Of a DNA stretch of 64,000 nucleotides, positions 3,004 to 63,438 are shown one piece after another (position 1 is the stretch's first letter; every line of letters starts with the position of its first letter). A model generated the notes under the pieces. The model was not told where the DNA came from and did no database searches. It saw only the letters and a list, made by a program, of their open reading frames with translations. The translations under genes and the position numbers were made by a program. Origin of the DNA: a virus; IMG/VR virus record IMGVR_UViG_3300004369_000011, positions 1 through 64,000 of that record; one strand, 5' to 3'.

Positions 3004-5229
3004 ATGCCTAGTTCACTCGACATCCGCAATCGCTTCACTGAAATCCTAGAGGCGTCTCGCACTCAGGATCGTTCGAAGCAAGCTGCAACAATGGTGGTGT
3101 TAAGCCATCTGCAGCAGATGACCCTTCTTATGATCAAGAAGGGTCTGACTTTTTTCTGCGACCAAGACACTTACAAAAGCCGAACTAGGTTTTTAACGGA
3201 TGTCATTGCTCTTAATAAGCTAGACATTCGTTTTCCTGCAATTATTCGAAATTTTTTAATCGATGGTTGCGGACTGTTTTATTTTCGACCTGATCCCAAA
3301 CTTAAGTATCAAATTTATTTCTTTAACAAGGACCAGTATCGGGTTTATCACGATATCAATGGCGAAGTTGAAGAAGTCATTATTATTTATAGCTATAAAG
3401 TTAAAAATAAAAATCTAGGGCTTCCTAGTAACGCTTACGGGCAGAACAAGCGTTATGTACGCTTAGCCATTACGGCAGAAGAAATAAGTGAAGTTGAAGC
3501 TGACAGTGAGCTTAGTTTTGAATTAGAGCCAGGAGCAATTTTAGCGCCTCAAAAAACACGACCTAACACACTTGGGTTTGTGCCTGCTGTTGAGGTACTG
3601 AATAAGCCGAGTGCTAGTGGAACAGAAGGAGAAGGAGAGTTCGACCCTTTTATGGAGCAGATCGTCATGCACGATATGCTTCTACAGAATATGTCTAAGA
3701 ACATCGAGTTCTTTGGTAACCCGACACTTATTAGTTCTCGTCCTAGGAGTGATCTTGTCGAAGCCTCTGACGCTCAGAGTTCTTTTCGACCAACTATCTC
3801 CAGTCAAAGTGGTTTTGGGGGTAGAGACTCACCTTCAACTCGGGTTAGTGAGCCTTTTGGGGCTTCGATGGGCGGTGGTCTCCGCGTTCCTCGAATCATT
3901 GCGAACGTTGAGCCTTCTGATCGAGTTGGCTACATGACGCCAGACCCCATTAGTGGGGACATGAATCGGTACGCTCTAATTGTTCGAGAGGAAATCCGAA
4001 CGGCTCTTGGCGGCGTTGATGAAATTTCAATCTCAGCTGGGGCCACGGCAACTGAGATTAAAGGCTTAATGGGTCGTGCTCAAGCCACGGCTCTTCGTAA
4101 GAACAAAAGTTTCTTGACTTATGGATTCTGTCGTCTACTGGAGATGATGGTCTACCACCAGGAAATAATTTTCCGGGAGTCTTTCATCGCTGCTGCAGGA
4201 CTGAAGGAACCTACTCCCCCTAAGGAGCAAACTGAAGAAAGTCTGGAGAAGTATCAGAGGTTGCTTGCTCGTTTTAACGACAAAGTAAACGAAACGATGC
4301 GTTCTTCGCTTACTGAAAATAAAGTACCCCGTGGGGTTATTGGGCTACCTGAAGACGGAGACCGTTCTGTTACATATCGTTTTCAGGGTGACGTTTATGA
4401 AGATACCGCCTATGATGTTAATCAGAAGTCCATCGTTGTACGAAATCTTCAGGAGTTGGGTGTCGATAGTATCGAAGCCCTCAAGTTTCTTTTCCCTGAA
4501 AAGAACGATTCCGAACGGGCTGAAATGCTGAAAGGCTTTCCATTCCGTATGGTCCAGCAAACTCAAGCAGCAATGCAACAGTTTCTGGTATTATTAACTC
4601 AGATGTTGCAGTCTCCGCACCCTCTTGCGCCTGATCAGCCTCTTGCGGCTGACCCTAGACTGAATATCACTCCGCTCCTTTACAGGACCTTCGACCACCT
4701 CGCGGAAGAATTAACTTACTCGGGTAGCTATGAGCCAGCAGATCCAAGCTTCGATCCCGAGCCCGGTCTCCCCGGCGGTAGCCCCGGCGGTACCTTCAGA
4801 CCAGGGCTCAACCGTTTACCCCCAGTGGGTGGCGCAAACCTCTACCCCGGCGGTAGCTTCGGTAACTACAGCCCAACCGCCGTCGCAGGTACAACAGGGT
4901 TCGGCCCCTTCTATCAATCACCAGTACAACCCGTCAACGTCTCCATACTCCCCAACGAACCCATGGGAGGCGGCAATGGGTTCGCTGGAGCGGGTGCTGC
5001 AGCAGATTCCTTCTCAGTACCCCAGCCAGGCTCAACCGTCTCTTTACCAGACGGCGCAGCCGGATATTCCAGCCGCCAATCAGCCTTCACAGGTCCAGCC
5101 TTGGGCCTACCAAGCACCCCAGGCAGCCCCGACCTACGCTACCAACGTCTCACCGACCCAGACTTCCTCTCCGGTTTCTACGGACAACAGCAGCCACGCT
5201 CTAACCGGAGTAAGCGCAGAGGTCGTTAG
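3004..5229 (+). CDS. probable portal protein with P/G-rich C-terminal extension
   Basis: size and position upstream of scaffold and MCP; helical core; inference from synteny. Confidence 0.6.
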   Translation: MPSSLDIRNRFTEILEASRTQDRSKQAATMVVLSHLQQMTLLMIKKGLTFFCDQDTYKSRTRFLTDVIALNKLDIRFPAIIRNFLIDGCGLFYFRPDPKLKYQIYFFNKDQYRVYHDINGEVEEVIIIYSYKVKNKNLGLPSNAYGQNKRYVRLAITAEEISEVEADSELSFELEPGAILAPQKTRPNTLGFVPAVEVLNKPSASGTEGEGEFDPFMEQIVMHDMLLQNMSKNIEFFGNPTLISSRPRSDLVEASDAQSSFRPTISSQSGFGGRDSPSTRVSEPFGASMGGGLRVPRIIANVEPSDRVGYMTPDPISGDMNRYALIVREEIRTALGGVDEISISAGATATEIKGLMGRAQATALRKNKSFLTYGFCRLLEMMVYHQEIIFRESFIAAAGLKEPTPPKEQTEESLEKYQRLLARFNDKVNETMRSSLTENKVPRGVIGLPEDGDRSVTYRFQGDVYEDTAYDVNQKSIVVRNLQELGVDSIEALKFLFPEKNDSERAEMLKGFPFRMVQQTQAAMQQFLVLLTQMLQSPHPLAPDQPLAADPRLNITPLLYRTFDHLAEELTYSGSYEPADPSFDPEPGLPGGSPGGTFRPGLNRLPPVGGANLYPGGSFGNYSPTAVAGTTGFGPFYQSPVQPVNVSILPNEPMGGGNGFAGAGAAADSFSVPQPGSTVSLPDGAAGYSSRQSAFTGPALGLPSTPGSPDLRYQRLTDPDFLSGFYGQQQPRSNRSKRRGR

Positions 5230-36045: not shown

Positions 36046-37287
36046 ATGCGGTTATCTGAAGCTGGGCTGTCCCTCATTAAAGAGTTTGAGGGGCTACAGC
36101 TTACTGCATATAAGTGTGCCGCTTCCGTGTGGACTATTGGCTACGGACACACTGGTCCCGACGTAGAGGAGGGCCAGCAGATCACTGAACAACAGGCTGA
36201 TCAACTGTTACTCCAAGACTGTGAGTCAAGCCAGCAGTGTGTTAGTTCATTTGTACATGTTCCTTTAAATCAGTATGAGTATGACGCTTTAGTTTCTTTT
36301 GTATTTAATGTGGGCCCCACGGCCTTTATCAACTCAACACTTTGCAAATTACTACTTTCTGGAACGGAGCGTTCTATTGTCGCTTCTGAGTTTTCTAGAT
36401 GGGTCAAAGCCGGAACTAAAATTCTTCCTGGCCTAGTACGTCGACGAACAGCAGAAAAAGAGTTATTTTTACGCAAAATCAAACACCCGAAATTGACTCA
36501 CTCCCTTCTGGCTAAGCAAGATACCTGGCTTAAACGTAAGCCTGTCGATGCGGCAAAACTTGCGGCGGAAGAAAAACTTTTTGTACCCAAAGGCTCCGCG
36601 TGGGAGTGGGCCGAGATTCGGCGTTATCCCAGTGAAGCCCATCAACAGATTTTTTTAACGGCTCAACCGGATACCGAATGGTGGTTTTTTCCAGACCACT
36701 GGAAAGTTATAAATGATGCACCCCCCGCACCGGCTCCGTCCGCGCCTGCAATTTCTGCAGAGATTAAGTTAAAGGTTCCTTATTATTCGCAAAGGGATAA
36801 TGCGCGAGATCCGATGCGCACTTGTTTTTCGTCCTCTTGTGCCATGCTTCTGGCAGCTTTGAAGCCGGGCAGCATCTCTGGGGATGATGCCTATATAAAC
36901 ACGGTGTATCGCCACGGAGATACAACGCAGGCTTGGGTGCAACTCAGGGCCCTAGCAGATTACGGAGTGAAAGCAGAGTTTCTTCAAAACGGTAACTGGA
37001 CGTCTATCGAAACTCAATTAACCAATGGAATTCCTGTTCCTATTGGTATTCTTCATCATGGGCCAGTCAGTCGTCCTCATGGATTTGGACATTGGATTGT
37101 TGTTATAGGCATTACAGCTGACAAGCAGCGTTTTATTGTGCACGATCCGTTTGGCGATTTAGATTTGGTTAATGGAGGATATCTTTCTACTAATGGAAAT
37201 AGCAGACTGTATTCCAAGAAGAATCTCGCCGCCCGGTGGTTAGTCGAAGGTAAGGCCAGCGGCTGGTTTGTTCGGGCAGTTAAATAG
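36046..37287 (+). CDS. endolysin: GH24 lysozyme plus C39-like cysteine peptidase
   Basis: IKEFEG..L.AY.C..VWTIGYGHT, GLVRRR.AE; VPYYSQRDN..CFSSSCAM, GHW, HDPFG. Confidence 0.85.
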   Translation: MRLSEAGLSLIKEFEGLQLTAYKCAASVWTIGYGHTGPDVEEGQQITEQQADQLLLQDCESSQQCVSSFVHVPLNQYEYDALVSFVFNVGPTAFINSTLCKLLLSGTERSIVASEFSRWVKAGTKILPGLVRRRTAEKELFLRKIKHPKLTHSLLAKQDTWLKRKPVDAAKLAAEEKLFVPKGSAWEWAEIRRYPSEAHQQIFLTAQPDTEWWFFPDHWKVINDAPPAPAPSAPAISAEIKLKVPYYSQRDNARDPMRTCFSSSCAMLLAALKPGSISGDDAYINTVYRHGDTTQAWVQLRALADYGVKAEFLQNGNWTSIETQLTNGIPVPIGILHHGPVSRPHGFGHWIVVIGITADKQRFIVHDPFGDLDLVNGGYLSTNGNSRLYSKKNLAARWLVEGKASGWFVRAVK

Positions 37288-44779: not shown

Positions 44780-44800
44780 AAAAGGCGCCGTAGCGCCTTC
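44778..44800 (-). terminator. intrinsic terminator
   Basis: AAGGCGC-UACG-GCGCCUU followed by a U-run on the - strand. Confidence 0.75.
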
Positions 44801-46886: not shown

Positions 46887-46911
46887 AAAAAGGGCCCTGT
46901 CAGCGGGCCCT
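46887..46911 (-). terminator. probable intrinsic terminator
   Basis: AGGGCCC stem followed by a U-run on the - strand. Confidence 0.6.
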
Positions 46912-50686: not shown

Positions 50687-50716
50687 AAAAAAAGAGGCGT
50701 CCCGTAGGACGCCCCT
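50687..50716 (-). terminator. intrinsic terminator
   Basis: GGCGUCC-UACG-GGACGCC followed by a U-run on the - strand. Confidence 0.8.
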
Positions 50717-51836: not shown

Positions 51837-53408
51837 CTACAACAATATTTTCTGAAAAACTGTAGAGGATTCGGGATCGTTTTGGGGGTCCACTACGTAC
51901 ACTTCATCGCTAAATTGTTGGAGTACATCAGCCTCCATTCCTATACAGAAAGCGTAAAAATTAATACTTTGCTCTTCTTTAAAGTTATTAAGACGTCGTA
52001 CAAAGGCATCAGGTACATTTGCTTGTCCGTCAGTAATTAATAGTATGTCTGCTTTTGGATCTATGTGAGCCTTTGTCATAGCATGCTCTAATACCGCAGT
52101 GAACGAAGTTCCTCCGGCAGTTCGCCACGTAAGAATAAAATCCAGTAGTTCTTTGTTATTTTTACGGTTGCTATCAAGCACCAAGCTGTTACAAATTCTG
52201 GCGTCAAATAAATGAATTTGAATTTCTCGCTTTTGCTTAAGACACTCGTCTGCGACAACAAAAGCTATTGCTTTCGACCATAATTCAGATTCTCCAGTCA
52301 TTGAGCCAGAAATGTCGATGTACATTACTACGGGTCCTCTATCAACGTCTTTAGATTTTGCTTCATAATCTTTAGTCAACAAAGTTTTTTGTGAATACTT
52401 AAGAGCAAACAGGGCACGTCCTTCCTGCGTGGCCGCCAACGCAATTTCAATAGGGAATGCTTTAGTTACTTCGTCAGAAAACTTAGCGCCAACTATATCG
52501 CTATAGTTCGTTTGAGTTTTTTTAGCTCGTCTTCTGTCATTCCAAGCTTTACGTAAGCCACCTAAACGAGAGGCTAGTTTCTGCAGTTTTTTATTATGAC
52601 TTAGTTTTTTAGCTAAAGCTTGTTTTTCTTGCAAATCTCCGCTGTGATGCCCCTGGCCTGTTTCTGTTCCAGCAAGAGCTGACATAGCATTTTCCAGTTC
52701 GTCAGCTTCTTTCTTAGCCCGCTCAACCGCCTCCGCTACCTTAGGTTGTAGTTTATTTCTGGCTTCGTTCAAGACTTGTTCCACGGCTTGACTCAATTGC
52801 TTTCCTTGCTGCCTTAGTTCGGTAGCCTCAAGGTCTTTTCCTTGTTTTTTAGCTTGAATGAAAGCGTCACGTAACTCGTTTAACTTCTCAGCACTATGCG
52901 CCAAAAGCTCTGCGGGCAGTTGACCCAATTCAATTTGCTCTTCTATAATTTCACTTAATTCGTTTAATAAACAAACGGCATTGTTGCCGCTATTAAATTG
53001 ATTGCCTATACAGTGGGTTGCAAGAGTCGGCCACGCGGGAGAATTACAGAGATCATTTAACAGGCCAATCCAAAAAGCAGATTCAGGTTTATATCCAGAA
53101 GGAAACGGGGGATCAAATCCTTCTTGTTTATTACGAAAATATTCTTCAGCCTCCGTCAAGGAGACTAGAGGAGTTACGTTGCCGCCCTGATAAAGACATT
53201 CAAAAATTTCTTTACCAAATCGAGATAGTTGTCGAATATCATATCGATCAATTAAGTAGTTGACCGTAGGTTTGGTGTCTCGTACAAAGTCTTCCCACAA
53301 ATAGTCTGCTAGCGCGGAGACCGCAACTACTATGGGCGCTGCATCAAGCAGGCGAATGTATTCGTGCAGGGTTTTGTTGTTCATGGATTTACTTAGTGAA
53401 CTCTCCAA
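51837..53408 (-). CDS. VWA-domain protein (ViaA-like)
   Basis: GPVVMYIDISGSM (MIDAS), GGTSF, ADILLITDG. Confidence 0.85.
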   Translation of the reverse strand: MESSLSKSMNNKTLHEYIRLLDAAPIVVAVSALADYLWEDFVRDTKPTVNYLIDRYDIRQLSRFGKEIFECLYQGGNVTPLVSLTEAEEYFRNKQEGFDPPFPSGYKPESAFWIGLLNDLCNSPAWPTLATHCIGNQFNSGNNAVCLLNELSEIIEEQIELGQLPAELLAHSAEKLNELRDAFIQAKKQGKDLEATELRQQGKQLSQAVEQVLNEARNKLQPKVAEAVERAKKEADELENAMSALAGTETGQGHHSGDLQEKQALAKKLSHNKKLQKLASRLGGLRKAWNDRRRAKKTQTNYSDIVGAKFSDEVTKAFPIEIALAATQEGRALFALKYSQKTLLTKDYEAKSKDVDRGPVVMYIDISGSMTGESELWSKAIAFVVADECLKQKREIQIHLFDARICNSLVLDSNRKNNKELLDFILTWRTAGGTSFTAVLEHAMTKAHIDPKADILLITDGQANVPDAFVRRLNNFKEEQSINFYAFCIGMEADVLQQFSDEVYVVDPQNDPESSTVFQKILL

Positions 53409-54573
53409 TGGTTTTAGCGATTCGTTGTGAATTGATATTTAACTCTTGGCACAATTTTGTAGCATCTTGTCGCGCTTTCAGAGTTACACGATAGTGTTCT
53501 CCCTCAAGAACTCCGTTTGCTTTTGCTTCTAGCACTTGTAAATCGTGATGAATCTTACGTAACTTACTAACCACGTGGTTTAAATCTTCTAGATTCTTGG
53601 CTTCTTTTGATTGAATCGCATGAAACTCACTGAGGACACCGGCTTGAGCCCGTTTAATGTCCTTTAACAACCTTTCAGCTGTAGGGATTACTTGATCCAA
53701 TACCTCCCGAATTACAGATACATCGTCAGGAGTCTGATAAACAATATGAATCAGGGAGTCGTGAAGATGTTCTGGATAAAGTTTATCGTCGCCCTGAACA
53801 AGAGCCCAGCCCCGCATGAACTTAAGAATCTGTACACGCCGTCGATCACTGATTGTTATGCCCCGCGTGACTAGCATCTCAAACACCTGAGCAAACGAGT
53901 CAAGAAACTCATCACTTGGAGCAATGAGAGCAGCCTCTTCTTGTAACTTGCCTAAATCGGCATAACTTAGATCTGATTCAACAGCAGGTCGCTGTTCGAT
54001 ACCCAGAGCCCATGTGTCTAGAAGTCTTTTTGAAATAGGAGCTTTGAGAAGATCTACTGTCGGTCTAAACAGAAAGCGATCGCAAAAAGCTTGGAGAGCT
54101 TCTTCTTGGGGAAAGCTGTTAGTCGCCGCAACGATAGATTGAATAGGTGTTGTCAACACCTCTTTGCCGTTATTAAACGTACGTTCGTTTAGGATCGTAA
54201 GCAGAGAATTTAGTACAGCGGAGGAGCCGCGAAAAAGCTCATCTAGGAAAGCTATGTTGGCAGTAGGAAGATAACCCTGTACATCCCGACTGTATTCGTC
54301 TTTAAGTAACTTACTTACAGCGACAGGACCGAACAACTCTGATGGATCTGTGGTGGGCGAAAGCAAATAACCGAAGAAGCTAGAACCTGTAAATCCGTTG
54401 GAAACGGCGCGAACTAATTCAGATTTACCTGTGCCGGGTAGACCAAACAAGAACGCATTTTGCTTGGTAATAACTGCAGCCAGTAAGCCGTCGATGACGG
54501 GTGCTCGCTCTAAGAAAGCATTGTTAAGTGAGCCTCTAAATTTTTGAAGAGAGGTAAAAAGTGTGTCGTTCAT
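53389..54573 (-). CDS. MoxR-family AAA+ ATPase (RavA-like)
   Basis: GLPGTGKS, ELFGP, FLDE, LNSLLTILNER, AATN, DRFLFR, ISDRR. Confidence 0.9.
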   Translation of the reverse strand: MNDTLFTSLQKFRGSLNNAFLERAPVIDGLLAAVITKQNAFLFGLPGTGKSELVRAVSNGFTGSSFFGYLLSPTTDPSELFGPVAVSKLLKDEYSRDVQGYLPTANIAFLDELFRGSSAVLNSLLTILNERTFNNGKEVLTTPIQSIVAATNSFPQEEALQAFCDRFLFRPTVDLLKAPISKRLLDTWALGIEQRPAVESDLSYADLGKLQEEAALIAPSDEFLDSFAQVFEMLVTRGITISDRRRVQILKFMRGWALVQGDDKLYPEHLHDSLIHIVYQTPDDVSVIREVLDQVIPTAERLLKDIKRAQAGVLSEFHAIQSKEAKNLEDLNHVVSKLRKIHHDLQVLEAKANGVLEGEHYRVTLKARQDATKLCQELNINSQRIAKTIGEFTK

Positions 54574-59923: not shown

Positions 59924-61932
59924 CCGTCTATATATTGCAGAGCAGGAATAACATTCTCCTCCAGTTGTTCGATGATGTCGAAAGGCAGAAGATCAGTGTC
60001 GATTAGATACTTGAAGCGGGCTAAAGATTCTTTAGCCAGGGTGTAACAATTCATCTTTTTAATATCAGTCGGAGCGGAGAAGTTCATCGGGAAATAACTT
60101 TGTCTTGGGTGTCTTCAACTTGAGAAGTAACAACAACACGTTGACACAGTGAGTTATATGCTGCAGGACATTCGCGCATCAAGATTTTGCGAAGATCGTG
60201 CTGCATGTGATGATTAACAACTGCAAGTAGTTGATCTTTGTGAAACTCTGAAAAGTAAGGGCTGTAGCTCATGGGTTTGTTATGCAAGTGGCAGGGGAGA
60301 TGTTGACTGTTGAAATGTTGCCCTCAATAGAAATGAGAGCAGCATCAAGTTCACTGATAACTTTCTTGTTGTCTGCGTAGATAACTGGATAGTTATTTAG
60401 TAGGCGAATCAACTCGGAACGATAGTCAATTAGTGCAGTCCGGAGCGTGGTGGTTTGCAGCGTGATCATGTGAGTTCAATTAGGTTCTGTTTTTCGAGCA
60501 AGATTAGGTGATCAAGTACATCGCCAAGGGTAGATCGAACGTACTCATCTTTCAGTGCAGCTTGATCGTAAGCATCGTATACAGTTGAGTACAATTTGTT
60601 GAACTGTTGTTTGTTCATGATTCCCTCCATGCTTTGCAGCAACGTGAGCTTACATAATAATCAGCAGAGTAGTCAGCGTAGCGATACTCTCGCACTACAC
60701 AAGATGCCTCTTGGTAAGAATCAAACTCGTCCATAGTTTCAAGGTAGTTGTGATTAATTGATCTGCGTTGGATGTAGTACATAATTAGAAGGTGATTGTT
60801 TGTGTAGTGTCAGAGAAAGTCTTGGTGCGTAGGTACTCAAGCGTAGTTAGATCATTCTTTGCCCAATCACCCCCAGGATGATTTGGAGTTTCATTAAGTA
60901 GTTGTAAAAGATCCTGTTCATATGCACGAATCATGCGGCGCATGAAGTCACGTTCTGCATTGTAGTTAGTGTTGTAGATGGCCATGATGTTGTTGTGATT
61001 GTGTGATTGATGCCACGCGAAGCGTGATGTCTTGAGACAACTTAAACAGGTCTGGTGTTGCCTCAAGCTAACTTAAACAAGCCAGAAGTTATCTAGCTTG
61101 AACTCATTAACAAACGATTTAGCAATCGCTTCCGCCGCAACTAAACGCTCAGGCTTCGCAAATAGCGAGTTCCACGATGTAGTTAGTGACCCATACTCTC
61201 GCTGATAATCTTTAGCCGCTGGGGTGCACAAATACCGTTCTATGTAACCGATTGCTCGGTCAAGATCGAACGTATTGTTAAGCCAGAACTTAGATAAAGT
61301 CTTGCCCACACTGTTGTAGTGTGCACTAGAGAAGTTAACTGCATACTCTTCTAGTTCGCGTGCAGCTTCAGTGTCGATTGTGTAAGTCATAGTTGGGTGA
61401 TAAGAATTAGAGTGCGGAGTGATAAACAATTTTCGCGTTCTCCCTTGCACTGGCGGGCATCTTTGTGATCTTCATTGCGAAGTCGATTGCCGCAGTTTCA
61501 TTAAGTGCAGCAACAATAACGTCACCGATTCTATAACCGGGGAAGCGAACATCGTAGCGCTCCATGATGTCGAAGTTAGCCATAGTTAAGAGGTGATTGT
61601 TAGTTAAACGATGATAATTAGGAGTAGTAGCGGCCCATAATAACGTCGTTGTCTTCAGTGAACTTCATAAGAATCCCACTGAAGAATGAGTCGCCGTGGT
61701 AACCCTCCCAGCCTGGGAATGAATCACCCTCGTTGCGCATGAAGTCACCCAGGCAGTAGTAATAACCTTTATAGTTTACGAATTGGGTATCTTCAAACTC
61801 AGTTTCAGTTAGGTAGTCAAACTGTTTGCGGAGTTTGATAGTTTCAGCGTCGCCGATGTACAACTCAGCGCATAACCCTGAGAATGTTTCTCTAGGCTGA
61901 TTGTTTGTGATGATGGTTAGAGCAGCAGTCAT
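59866..61932 (-). other. cluster of small early hypothetical genes (59866-60087, 60084-60287, 60269-60469, 60785-61066, 61073-61450, 61618-61932, plus ORFs under 60 aa)
   Basis: densely packed co-oriented short ORFs downstream of the early promoters. Confidence 0.6.
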
Positions 61933-61962
61933 GATGATTCACCTGTATGCAATGTGATGTAG

Positions 61963-62480
61963 TGAGGGAAGAATCCCTCAGTTTGATGTAGTATCAAAGA
62001 GAGAGAATCTGTTAGGTTGGTGATCATAAATGATCTAACCTTAATCTAGATCAACTGTACATCTTGATGATGTAGAGGCTATCAGGAACCTACCCCAAGT
62101 TAGTTAGGGAAAGTCGGCCTAAACTTAAAGTAACGTACAAAGCGCACTAAATACATGCAAAGCATATACTTAATGCGCCAAGTGCGTCAGTTCTTTGTAT
62201 TTAGTTCCACGTTGGCGATGCGTGGTAGAAGTTAACGCCGTTAAAAGTGATGACAGGAAGTCTATGGGCTCTGTCCAGAGTACCTGCACTAGACACAGTG
62301 ACTCTGGACAGAGGAAAGGAATCGATACGGCGCACACTTAACGAGTCGGGTTGCAACTCTATTGTGCTCGGGGGATCACTCGCGCCCCTAGTTCCATTTT
62401 CTGGCCATATCTGTTATGCAGAATAAGTTAACTGTGCCTTAGGCTTTCCGTACAAACTATCTCAGTACAGTTAACTATTC
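61963..62480 (-). ncRNA. candidate large structured leader or non-coding RNA
   Basis: no ORF of 60 aa or more; at least nine inverted-repeat stems, several nested. Confidence 0.5.
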
Positions 62481-62545
62481 AGTTTTCAAGGTGCGATCGG
62501 TTGCCCGATGCCTCAGATCCTACAGCATGAAGCGCAGCTTGTCGG
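62476..62545 (-). promoter_or_regulatory. early promoter P2 + GCAA hairpin + boxA-like element
   Basis: CCGACA-17-TAGGAT; ATCGG-GCAA-CCGAT; GCACCTTGAAAACTGAATA. Confidence 0.65.
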
Positions 62546-62659
62546 GATGGTTGTTTCTGAATCGAAACATTGCGTAACGTTGGCGGGATCCTGACCATTG
62601 GTCTAGGGATCACAGGCCTTGCCACGCGTCACCCGATTGGCTGGGCTGGGCTGATCGGA

Positions 62660-62732
62660 TTGTCGAGGTGCTGCCAATCGGTCTCCCGTTCGGCTTGAGC
62701 ACAGTATGGGCACACCAGGGGCCCTAGGTCAA
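62660..62732 (-). promoter_or_regulatory. early promoter P1 + GAGA hairpin + boxA-like element
   Basis: TTGACC-18-CATACT; GCCGAACGG-GAGA-CCGATTGGC; GCACCTCGACAA. Confidence 0.65.
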
Positions 62733-63225
62733 GCCCTGAAACATTAAGAAAGTCTGAAGCCTAGGTGCGCTGGGTGAGGGGAGAGGAACCGCACGCGCTC
62801 GCGTGTATATATACATACTAAAATTGAAACCTGCCTGCCAGGTCTGACCGACTCAGCACCAGGAGAGGGGATGATAGGAAGCCTCCCCCGCCTATGTATA
62901 ACTAACCCTGCTCGCTATGTATAAAGAACTGGACGCAATCTGCCCGCAATGTGCCCTTTTTTTTAATATACAGCCTTGTTTGACGACGGGGCCGAGAACC
63001 CCCTGAGTATCAGGCAGGTAAATTGGGTATAAAAGGTCCCCCCGTCAATAAATTGATACTCAAAACCGGTAAGGCTTGTTAAAAAAAATTTTGGCCGCCC
63101 GTTTTTTAAGGTAAAAAGCTGTTCAGGTCGATAATTTTGTTTAATTTGAGATAAGGGTGGGGTAATGCAGGGTACTGGCCCCTATACTCTGACGTGTAGA
63201 CTCTTTTTGAGCTTAGAGAGGTTCC

Positions 63226-63438
63226 ATGACTGACCATGCACTTGTTGATAAGTTAAAAACTGCGGGGGTGTGTTGTGCTGAGTGCGGGGACAGGTACGGA
63301 ACCCCCCGTGGAAAGTATTCGTCTTGGTGGATGGGTGTTTGCAATGTGTGCGATGCAGAGGCACCCGTCACCGAGGTACGTAATTTTCGCTATTTGCATC
63401 GTGGGCTTGTTGAACTTGTTGAAAATGCCAAGATCTAG
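63226..63438 (+). CDS. small Zn-ribbon protein
   Basis: GAGG RBS; two CxxC motifs. Confidence 0.6.
   Translation: MTDHALVDKLKTAGVCCAECGDRYGTPRGKYSSWWMGVCNVCDAEAPVTEVRNFRYLHRGLVELVENAKI

Follow-up and report, generated by a model that had tools for sequence, protein, structure and literature searches.

A conserved, modular leader with two rRNA-type boxA copies precedes the early genes of uncultured aquatic phages

Identification of the leader and its boxA copies

In this study, a non-coding stretch of 1.29 kb (61933–63225) was analyzed in a window comprising bases 1–64,000 of a 72,080-bp IMG/VR virus record (IMGVR_UViG_3300004369_000011). Open reading frames (ORFs) are arrayed on the minus strand from 61932 down to approximately 39400, and ORFs on the plus strand resume at 63226. 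The stretch is predicted to specify an untranslated leader RNA of approximately 760 nt, read from the minus strand and folded co-transcriptionally, with region 61963–62480, the left part of the stretch, as its larger 3′ part (three-quarters); this length is given because the inferred promoter puts the start near 62695. The leader heads the early-to-replication gene array of the phage, the products of which include a D5-type primase-helicase, a family A DNA polymerase and a MoxR/VWA pair, and it carries two copies of a boxA motif of the bacterial rRNA operon (rrn) type. Our preferred reading, the chances of which we judge to be evenly balanced, is that the leader acts in cis by loading host Nus factors for processive antitermination and that it ends in a hairpin with two states.

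The two copies, boxA-1 and boxA-2 (Table 1), were the only matches to the boxA pattern in the whole window, and both were on the sense strand. They lie about 150–180 nt apart, 25–40 and approximately 200 nt after the inferred start. Judged by its letters, the phage motif is the bacterial rrn boxA, core plus 3′ extension. An exact copy of the boxA-2 20-mer was present in 93 bacterial genome stretches, which come from many phyla and include Clostridia, Chloroflexota, Acidimicrobiia, a Prochlorococcus and others. A degenerate form of the motif was found in at least 120 genome stretches and, in 18 of the 80 matches examined, lay 89–618 nt after a 16S 3′-end motif. The complement of a primer for "antitermination box A" of the picocyanobacterial internal transcribed spacer, given in PMC9769826, equals the first 15 bases of the boxA-2 of relatives, and the degenerate motif sits in 16S–23S spacers. 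Placement is likewise that of an rrn-type boxA: the copies are on the transcribed strand, near a putative promoter and ahead of a long minus-strand unit. Naming a host from boxA was tried and abandoned, as the exact 20-mer occurs in too many phyla. For the same reason, an early guess at a cyanobacterial host, based on the best polA matches and the picocyanobacterial likeness of boxA, was reduced to a mere possibility.

Relatives were collected with several kinds of query. The closest polA match in the phage reference collection had no more than 26.5% identity (the best matches, to Pseudanabaena phages, had 26%), and a DNA search with 61500–63300 against 50,697 phage records gave no match. A polA search of viral contigs returned 61 related loci with 57–80% identity and one distant locus with 30%, alignments of two conserved early proteins added 8 and 42 further loci (50 in total), and patterns for two of the modules described below returned 9 viral stretches (M2 domain) and 82 metagenome stretches (M3 hairpin). 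Alignments were required with the early proteins: as single queries, the first ORFs on the minus and plus strands each found no relatives in viral contigs. The M3 pattern was absent from the genomes of 185,579 species, with no prophage or host copy among them. The pooled and oriented leaders, 122 extracts from viral and metagenome contigs, formed 76 clusters at 97% identity; three of these are mirror images, M3 being palindromic enough to match both strands. The boxA counts cover 59 cluster representatives, each extending 700 nt or more upstream of M3. At least one strict sense-strand boxA was present in 52 of the 59 and at least two in 37, with a median spacing of 151 nt, and no antisense copy was found among them.

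Position and architecture of the leader were conserved across this clade of uncultured aquatic phages. With a size of 0.55–0.95 kb, it always stood directly 5′ of the first early gene, the homolog of the one in this phage, and a Shine-Dalgarno (SD) sequence followed 20–40 nt after it. M3 and the GATC motif described below were 205–250 nt apart in nearly all relatives that have the motif (347 nt in one; 274 nt here), and M3 and the tail hairpin of relatives 253–321 nt, mostly 280–288 nt. Modules were exchanged between lineages in the manner of cassettes, which gives the leader a mosaic build. When the intergenic region was compared by BLAST with 43 polA-related records, 6 matched; most of the 43 stop short of the expected place of the leader, 11–13 kb upstream of polA. 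Leader pieces were 80–86% identical in records whose polA is just 57–58% identical. Because the strongest match had 86% identity over 62332–62492, in a record with a 58% identical polA, the leader core is better conserved than the polymerase. In four records whose leader region is not close to a contig end (G034, G032, G017, and G024), a gap of 1.2–1.5 kb without ORFs of at least 80 amino acids (aa) stood before the homologous early genes, apart from one ORF in the gap of G034 (4201–4449) that was judged spurious.

An earlier reading of this DNA, made from its letters alone (the sequence-only reading), had described 61963–62480 as ORF-free, densely paired RNA behind a boxA, not recognizable as a known Rfam family. 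Each part of that description held. Sense-strand ORFs have just 21, 32, 51, and 55 aa, and none is conserved in 61933–62480. Against shuffled sequence, the minus (sense) strand of 61933–62500 gave an RNAfold z of −6.80 (minimum free energy −179.4 kcal/mol) and the plus strand a z of −2.37, none of 100 shuffles being as good in either case. For the centre of the leader (62046–62266), z was −4.32 on the sense strand (0 of 200 shuffles as good) and −0.76 on the antisense (plus) strand (41 of 200). Such strand asymmetry indicates a contribution from sense-strand G-U pairs, which would be expected for an RNA and not for a DNA palindrome. Compensatory changes among homologs supported helices of M1, M2, the post-M3 hairpin and Alt-A, as detailed below. 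These results point to a large, strand-specific structured RNA element that adjoins a genuine rrn-type boxA at the head of a minus-strand gene array.

Searches with Rfam 15 (4227 models) placed the element in no known family, in the window or in the loci of 14 relatives. The 64-kb window had no match at the gathering score, and across 61700–63400 only three chance-level matches appeared at E ≤ 10 (E 3.8–9.8), to plant microRNA, small nucleolar RNA and long non-coding RNA models. The sole matches in the 14 relatives' loci were tRNAs outside the leader. No tRNA gene was found in the window; in some relatives, tRNA genes lie a few hundred bases upstream of the leader on the opposite strand (L117:371–442 and 1980–2052; L336:2172–2244). 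In the open-access full texts searched, no paper was found on boxA in cyanophage leaders or similar phage leaders.

Modules of the leader

The promoter-like site would be of the sigma-70 type, with a start near 62695, and it aligned with TTGAC(C/G)...TACCTT in G034 and G032, which belong to one related lineage. Upstream of it, a block at 62940–63001 was conserved in three other lineages with 70–82% identity. This block contains an A8/T8 run that adjoins GGGCACATTGCGGGCAG, and interleaved inverted repeats lie beside it (TTGACG..GGGG and GAGTATCA, each found on both strands). The whole stretch, 62940–63060, could hold an origin, operators or additional promoters.

The stretch between the two boxA copies was predicted by RNAfold to fold as one long irregular hairpin, and this domain was partly conserved in L090, L117, and L119. 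The G+C content of 200-nt windows was 0.575 at 62500 and 0.610 at 62600, compared with 0.46 at 62400, and was 0.55–0.61 across 62500–62800 compared with 0.39–0.47 in the flanks. The sequence-only reading had set the limits of the element at 61963–62480; this part is indeed structured, but the non-coding stretch extends beyond it and, on the 5′ side, includes another boxA and another folded domain. In this phage, hairpins stand directly 5′ of both boxA copies (62673–62694 and 62496–62509), the second being AUCGG-GCAA-CCGAU, which ends 1 nt before boxA-2.

M1 starts in the tail of boxA-2 and bears the conserved element ..ACGGRWAGCC.. at its apex. In 15 sequences, its upper stem was 89.2% paired, with 5 of 8 pairs compensatory and a covariation of 0.529 compared with 0.266 in shuffles, none of 500 reaching the observed value. 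A pairing within the apex (UAG/CUA versus CGG/CCG) was also considered and is left unproven, as the registers lie one column apart between variants.

M2, a three-way junction, was found in 13 distinct sequences, this phage counted. In the 11 distinct sequences compared, 98.8% of cells were paired and 12 of 23 pairs were compensatory, a level reached by none of 500 shuffles, and slid controls gave at most 3 pairs. Forty-seven columns (about half) were invariant, most of them outside helices and many in junctions and loops. A related form (GGGCGCGGAAGUUCCCCC...) occupied the same place in L089, L125, L298, and L330. Because helix P2 occupies 62324–62331, it excludes an ACGGCG/CGCCGT pairing there. 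The nest of stems proposed by the sequence-only reading was therefore retained in part: its 13-bp pair stands, whereas CGCCGT/ACGGCG and GTTAA/TTAAC clash with the covariation-supported P2.

M3, a hairpin of 13–15 bp, was almost invariant in sequence across the clade; since its stem letters barely vary, no covariation test was possible. Insertions in the 3′ arm of some relatives leave both sub-stems pairable (by eye). At the place after M3, the hairpin of relatives had all 5 of its pairs compensatory, with none of 500 shuffles reaching this, and just 3 of the 5 covarying column pairs hold in this phage. The centre of the leader (about 62046–62266) had no BLAST match in the leaders compared. 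A 15-bp long-range helix between 62499–62514 and 62075–62090 (predicted probability 0.76) was rejected and is not claimed: in 46 relatives, cognate duplexes had −24.2 and non-cognate duplexes −23.4 kcal/mol, and the ranks were evenly spread.

All stems listed by the sequence-only reading were recovered where it had placed them. They include GAATAAGTTAACTGT (62421–62435 with 62467–62480), the perfect 13-bp pair (62269–62281 with 62301–62313), the 10-bp pair (62146–62155 with 62196–62205), CCACG/CGTGG (62207/62221), TACATC/GATGTA (62058/62069), a pair at 62014/62030, TTTGAT/ATCAAA (61982/61993) and TGAGGGA/TCCCTCA (61963/61974).

The last module consists, in order, of GAUUCUCUC, a covarying small hairpin and UGAGGGAUUCUUCCCUC. 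Two mutually exclusive hairpins can form in it, Alt-A and Alt-B, as GAGGGA pairs leftwards with UCUCUC or rightwards with UCCCUC. Alt-A, which encloses the covarying stem UUUGAU/AUCAAA (61982–61998), was 92.9% paired in 63 sequences, with 7 of 13 pairs compensatory and a covariation of 0.489 compared with 0.180 in shuffles (0 of 500 reached it). Its outermost pair changes from UA to GC in 11 sequences, and it was the choice of minimum free energy in 57 of 59. Alt-B is the TGAGGGA/TCCCTCA stem of the sequence-only reading, which is present but excludes, and is excluded by, the longer covarying hairpin. Its stem is just 6–7 bp long (mean −9.6 kcal/mol), and in 25 of 59 sequences five U residues fall within the 7–8 nt after it. 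Both partners of the GAGGGA core were kept in all 63 sequences, which include three core variants; in one lineage (4 sequences), the core is GAGAAC and both partners are GUUCUC, so that the three strands changed in step. The support for Alt-B is weaker than that for Alt-A. On a global MAFFT alignment of 59 sequences, RNAalifold gave just 10 pairs because stems were misaligned.

Table 1. Features of the leader region and of the downstream gene array
Feature	Position	Strand	Description and basis
Promoter-like site TTGACC-18 nt-CATACT	62703–62732	minus	Consensus scan; inferred start near 62695
5′ hairpin GCCGAACGG/CCGAUUGGC	62673–62694	minus	Directly before boxA-1; RNAfold mean pair probability 0.99
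boxA-1 GCACCTCGACAATCCGAT	62654–62671	minus	Exact match to the boxA pattern of the clade; conserved in relatives
G+C-rich folded domain between boxA copies	62517–62660	minus	Nested helices, pair probability 0.86–1.00
boxA-2 GCACCTTGAAAACTGAAT	62477–62494	minus	Match to the clade pattern; the boxA of the sequence-only reading
M1 hairpin, 14–16 bp	62421–62480	minus	Starts in boxA-2 tail; pair probability 0.87
M2 three-way junction	62324–62411	minus	P2 = 62404–62411 with 62324–62331
M2 sub-helices			P2a GGGG/CCCC, P2b GCACA/UGUGC, P2c GAGUUG/CGACUC
M3 hairpin	62267–62315	minus	Perfect 13-bp stem here; pair probability 1.00
UUAAC/GUUAA hairpin	62232–62244	minus	Read from sequence
CCACG/CGUGG hairpin	62207–62225	minus	Pair probability 0.85
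Composite hairpin, lineage-specific	62119–62204	minus	18-bp apical stem 62141–62179; pair probability 0.65–1.00
CCCUAA/UUGGGG hairpin	62093–62109	minus	Pair probability 0.80, thermodynamic prediction
UACAUC/GAUGUA hairpin	62058–62074	minus	Pair probability 0.96, thermodynamic prediction
GATC(A) repeats	62014–62052	not assigned	At 62022, 62032, and 62049
Alt-A long hairpin, ~13 bp	61974–62006	minus	UCUCUC 62001–62006 with GAGGGA 61974–61979
Alt-B tail hairpin UGAGGGA/UCCCUCA	61963–61980	minus	Shares GAGGGA with Alt-A
SD AGGUG and start ATG	61940–61944 and 61930–61932	minus	First early ORF 61618–61932, 104 aa
Terminator-like hairpin	50716–50693	minus (sense)	10-bp stem, U7
Terminator-like hairpins	46911–46891 and 44800–44781	minus	46891–46911 scores on both strands

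The first early gene encodes a member of a conserved protein family of approximately 100 aa (PHROG 1845, function unknown), which was also found in L074, L075, and the 42 loci. Its invariant motifs are NNQPR, YKGYYY, and GRYYS, and a sub-threshold Pfam match resembles APOBEC_N (E 0.003, 18 bits against a cut-off of 25). Within the replication gene array, adjoining genes at 51837–54573 (minus) encode a MoxR-type AAA+ ATPase (bpMoxR, E 3e-54) and a VWA-domain protein. On the plus strand, a single ORF at 36046–37287 fuses a phage lysozyme domain with a C39-like papain-type peptidase domain.

Proposed function and alternative explanations

On rRNA operons and lambdoid nut sites, boxA has a role in antitermination, and it is because of this established role that Nus-factor loading is proposed for the leader. 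Host RNA polymerase would start at the sigma-70-like promoter, and the nascent boxA copies would attract the Nus factors of the host (NusB/NusE with NusA/NusG), as happens in rRNA transcription. The modified polymerase would then cross the untranslated leader and read through terminators in the array, for example the U7 hairpin before polA. In the last module, either Alt-A or Alt-B would fold, which probably gates entry into the first gene, and host or phage factors most likely bind to the sequence-invariant modules (M3, the loops of M2 and the GAUCA repeats). Nus binding, start, processing and termination at the leader are putative.

Two further lines of evidence bear on this proposal. The strong terminator-like hairpin at 50716–50693 ends 25 nt before the polA start (50668), too close for a promoter to fit between them. 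In addition, contigs with 88–99% identity, assembled from four metatranscriptome runs that belong to three studies, tile 61612–63122, and one of them bridges the start codon and the 3′ leader; they give a weak hint that the leader is transcribed. Within 61300–63300, the stretches without contig cover (61300–61611 and 63123–63300) carry no weight.

Several observations weigh against the antitermination proposal. The metatranscriptome contigs carry no strand and may stem from DNA carry-over, and one of them (62630–63122) runs across the proposed promoter. The strict pattern TTGACN-N16-19-TANNNT was present in just 16 of 52 relatives. Terminator-like sites in the array were not above shuffles (25 compared with 19.8, standard deviation 4.5), and a promoter-like site follows the hairpin at 44800–44781, so the array may comprise separate transcription units. 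Across the relatives, the 31 nt 5′ of boxA (−7.3 kcal/mol) were indistinguishable from control windows (−6.3 kcal/mol); as folding is not in excess there, an rrn-like boxB is not supported. In place of the hairpin found before boxA-2 in this phage, many relatives (for example L102:502–530, G034, G032, and G017) have a conserved CUAGGU 5–6 nt upstream of boxA-2, which can pair (by eye) with the 5′ half of boxA, ACCUWG; this small hairpin could hide part of boxA. M1 and M2 occurred in just a subset of the leaders and are therefore not essential to whatever all leaders do. The tail hairpin is followed by 2 U of 8 nt in this phage, and lacking a U-tract it is not a canonical terminator here. Alt-B gave no covariation signal on the MAFFT alignment, the compensating G was found in just 1 of 11 sequences of the GAGGGC clade, and composition-matched shuffles already supply partners for the core in 57–65% of cases. 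In six relatives (25 shuffles each), the antisense strand also folded well, with a mean z of −5.94 compared with −6.92 for the sense strand.

A bolder version of the antitermination proposal is that the leader imitates an rRNA operon in miniature: promoter, boxA, folded domain, second boxA and larger folded RNA would follow one another, and the early transcript would be dressed as pre-rRNA. We regard this version as rather improbable. If true, it would capture the complete antitermination and RNA-chaperone machinery of host rRNA, perhaps diverting it from ribosome synthesis; the exchangeable M1, M2, M3 and GAUCA repeats would form a set of sites at which host or phage factors dock, and the leader a new class of large modular phage regulatory RNA.

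The sequence-only reading had taken the region for one of the first RNAs made on infection and had suggested that it could be a large non-coding RNA, an antiterminator of the put or EAR kind, or a decoy. This interpretation is borne out in part; it did not include the promoter-proximal second boxA, the mosaic build or the competing 3′ hairpins. In its stand-alone form, the leader would be a large non-coding RNA, or would be cut into several RNAs, serving in trans as decoys or sponges that engage host proteins or defences, with boxA only ensuring that synthesis is completed. The invariant columns of M2 are consistent with this, as such nucleotides outside helices are seen in protein- or ligand-binding RNAs, and so are the near-invariance of M3 and the exchange of modules as independent cassettes, of which a contig is a further example, as its loose end at 62479 switches to the boxA region of another lineage. 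A free RNA of approximately 0.7 kb could terminate at the U-rich tract that follows the tail hairpin in 25 of 59 leaders, and the near-perfect 13- and 18-bp stems could be substrates of RNase III. However, the tract is absent in this phage, the leader always stands directly before the first early gene with its SD sequence close behind, and the contig that joins leader and gene 1 came from an RNA library. No similarity to the non-coding RNAs of Rfam, large phage-borne families included, was found. A free RNA is held to be a minor candidate.

Parts of the leader may instead act as double-stranded DNA. M3, an imperfect palindrome of invariant sequence, and the GATC(A) repeats, aligned along one helix face, would then be operators, iterons of a transcription-activated origin or methylation-sensitive sites, and the RNA structure at these places a by-product. 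As RNA, the repeats form the hairpin AGGUU-GAUCA/UGAUC-AACCU (62014–62041). At the matching place in relatives, 2–5 copies of GATC were present in 57 of 59 leaders; among 115 neighbouring pairs, 94 had a spacing of 10 nt and 9 a spacing of 11 nt. GATC was not depleted in the window (231 found compared with 245 expected). With this phasing, and with M3 arms kept by sequence and not by covariation, both modules could be double-stranded DNA sites just as readily as RNA ones, which is a further point against a purely RNA-based reading; the repeats are candidates for iterons, methylation-sensitive sites or repeated RNA-protein contacts. The phage also encodes a D5-type primase-helicase and a family A polymerase, and the low z of the antisense strand in relatives would fit DNA sites as well. 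Against this, covariation that includes G-U pairs is seen in the neighbouring M1, M2, post-M3 hairpin and Alt-A, the two strands of this phage differ strongly in folding, the pairable sub-stems of M3 despite insertions point to a folded strand, and no binding protein was identified. We consider action on DNA somewhat less probable still than a free RNA; it is compatible with the RNA reading, since it can hold for the two modules while the rest acts as RNA.

A riboswitch-like sensor, in which M2 or its lineage alternatives would bind a small molecule or ion and set the state of the 3′ hairpin, is quite unlikely. In its favour, M2 folds compactly as a three-way junction whose junction and loop nucleotides do not vary, and a bistable element resembling a terminator/antiterminator lies downstream of it. 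However, M2 is approximately 320 nt upstream of this switch with unrelated modules between, is absent from most leaders, being found in just the 13 distinct sequences, and showed neither a pairing with the switch nor an Rfam riboswitch match.

A neutral spacer with chance stems, or tiny unannotated genes such as the sense ORFs of 21–55 aa, can be given hardly any credence in view of the folding stability, the compensatory changes in four modules, a nucleotide conservation exceeding that of polA, longest sense ORFs that in six relatives (26–66 aa; shuffled means 55–82 aa) fell below their own shuffled mean in five and above it only in L285 (66 compared with 55), and an ATG at 62027 that by eye is without counterpart in most relatives, the frame from the matching TTG in G034 reaching a stop after four codons.

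Relation to known systems and significance

Among known systems, the rrn leader and spacer (boxB-boxA-boxC, with NusA/B/E/G and further factors) resemble the phage leader in the boxA sequence itself. There are also two copies, as in the rrn leader and spacer, each before a long structured untranslated RNA and the first promoter-proximal. Unlike the rrn case, protein-coding genes follow instead of rRNA, and the hairpin 5′ of boxA is indistinguishable from background.

Lambdoid nut sites consist of boxA and then a short boxB stem-loop, which is recognized by an N-type protein. The phage leader resembles them in having a host-type boxA near the start of the early transcript, a hairpin directly after it and terminator-like hairpins downstream. 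It differs in that the hairpin after boxA-2 has a 14–16-bp stem and an apical element of approximately 30 nt rather than a short stem and small loop, and in that two boxA copies occur on one transcript with approximately 560 nt of further conserved structure after them. The ten early proteins scanned had no informative PHROG or Pfam match, and no N-like protein was recognized, although one could be missed. With no short boxB and no recognizable N, the leader as read from its sequence falls outside the definition of a nut site.

The put RNA of HK022 and the EAR RNA of Bacillus are likewise structured RNAs at the start of long operons, for which a termination-resistant polymerase is proposed as it is here. 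They are far shorter and work without boxA, and no motif shared with the leader was seen in a comparison limited to the Rfam scan, in which the presence of put and EAR models was unchecked. In T7-type phages, early-transcript leaders have RNase III hairpins. The likeness lies in an early transcript from a host promoter and a long untranslated leader with long hairpins (13 and 18 bp here); the leaders of the present family are far longer, modular and equipped with pairs of rrn-type boxA, and RNase III cleavage is putative here. GOLLD, ROOL, and OLE share with the leader the size class (0.55–0.95 kb), the many conserved helices and invariant loops, carriage by phages and an unknown function. Unlike these RNAs, the leader is always the 5′ leader of a gene array and not free-standing, has no Rfam match, and varies in module content between lineages, so that there is no single fixed fold. 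By analogy, it may work like an rrn leader or a nut site. It matches no family in Rfam, and its RNA body represents a new family.

Lambdoid nut sites are the main known case in which phages use processive antitermination that depends on protein factors. In the present clade of uncultured aquatic phages (76 clusters), the boxA of host rRNA type is carried twice, in a conserved and covarying leader. On the antitermination reading, it would also bring a large structured RNA not described before, whose modules are clearly delimited and include a clean three-way junction and a two-state 3′ hairpin. Whatever its function, the leader offers objects for direct tests: the candidate binding domain M2, the 15-bp hairpin M3 with its invariant sequence and the GAUC repeats with their 10-nt phasing. 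boxA may also be a handle for guessing the hosts of uncultured phages, although the one found here is too widespread to name one. If the antitermination proposal is true, phages would have a second, N-independent route by which to borrow the transcription machinery of rRNA.

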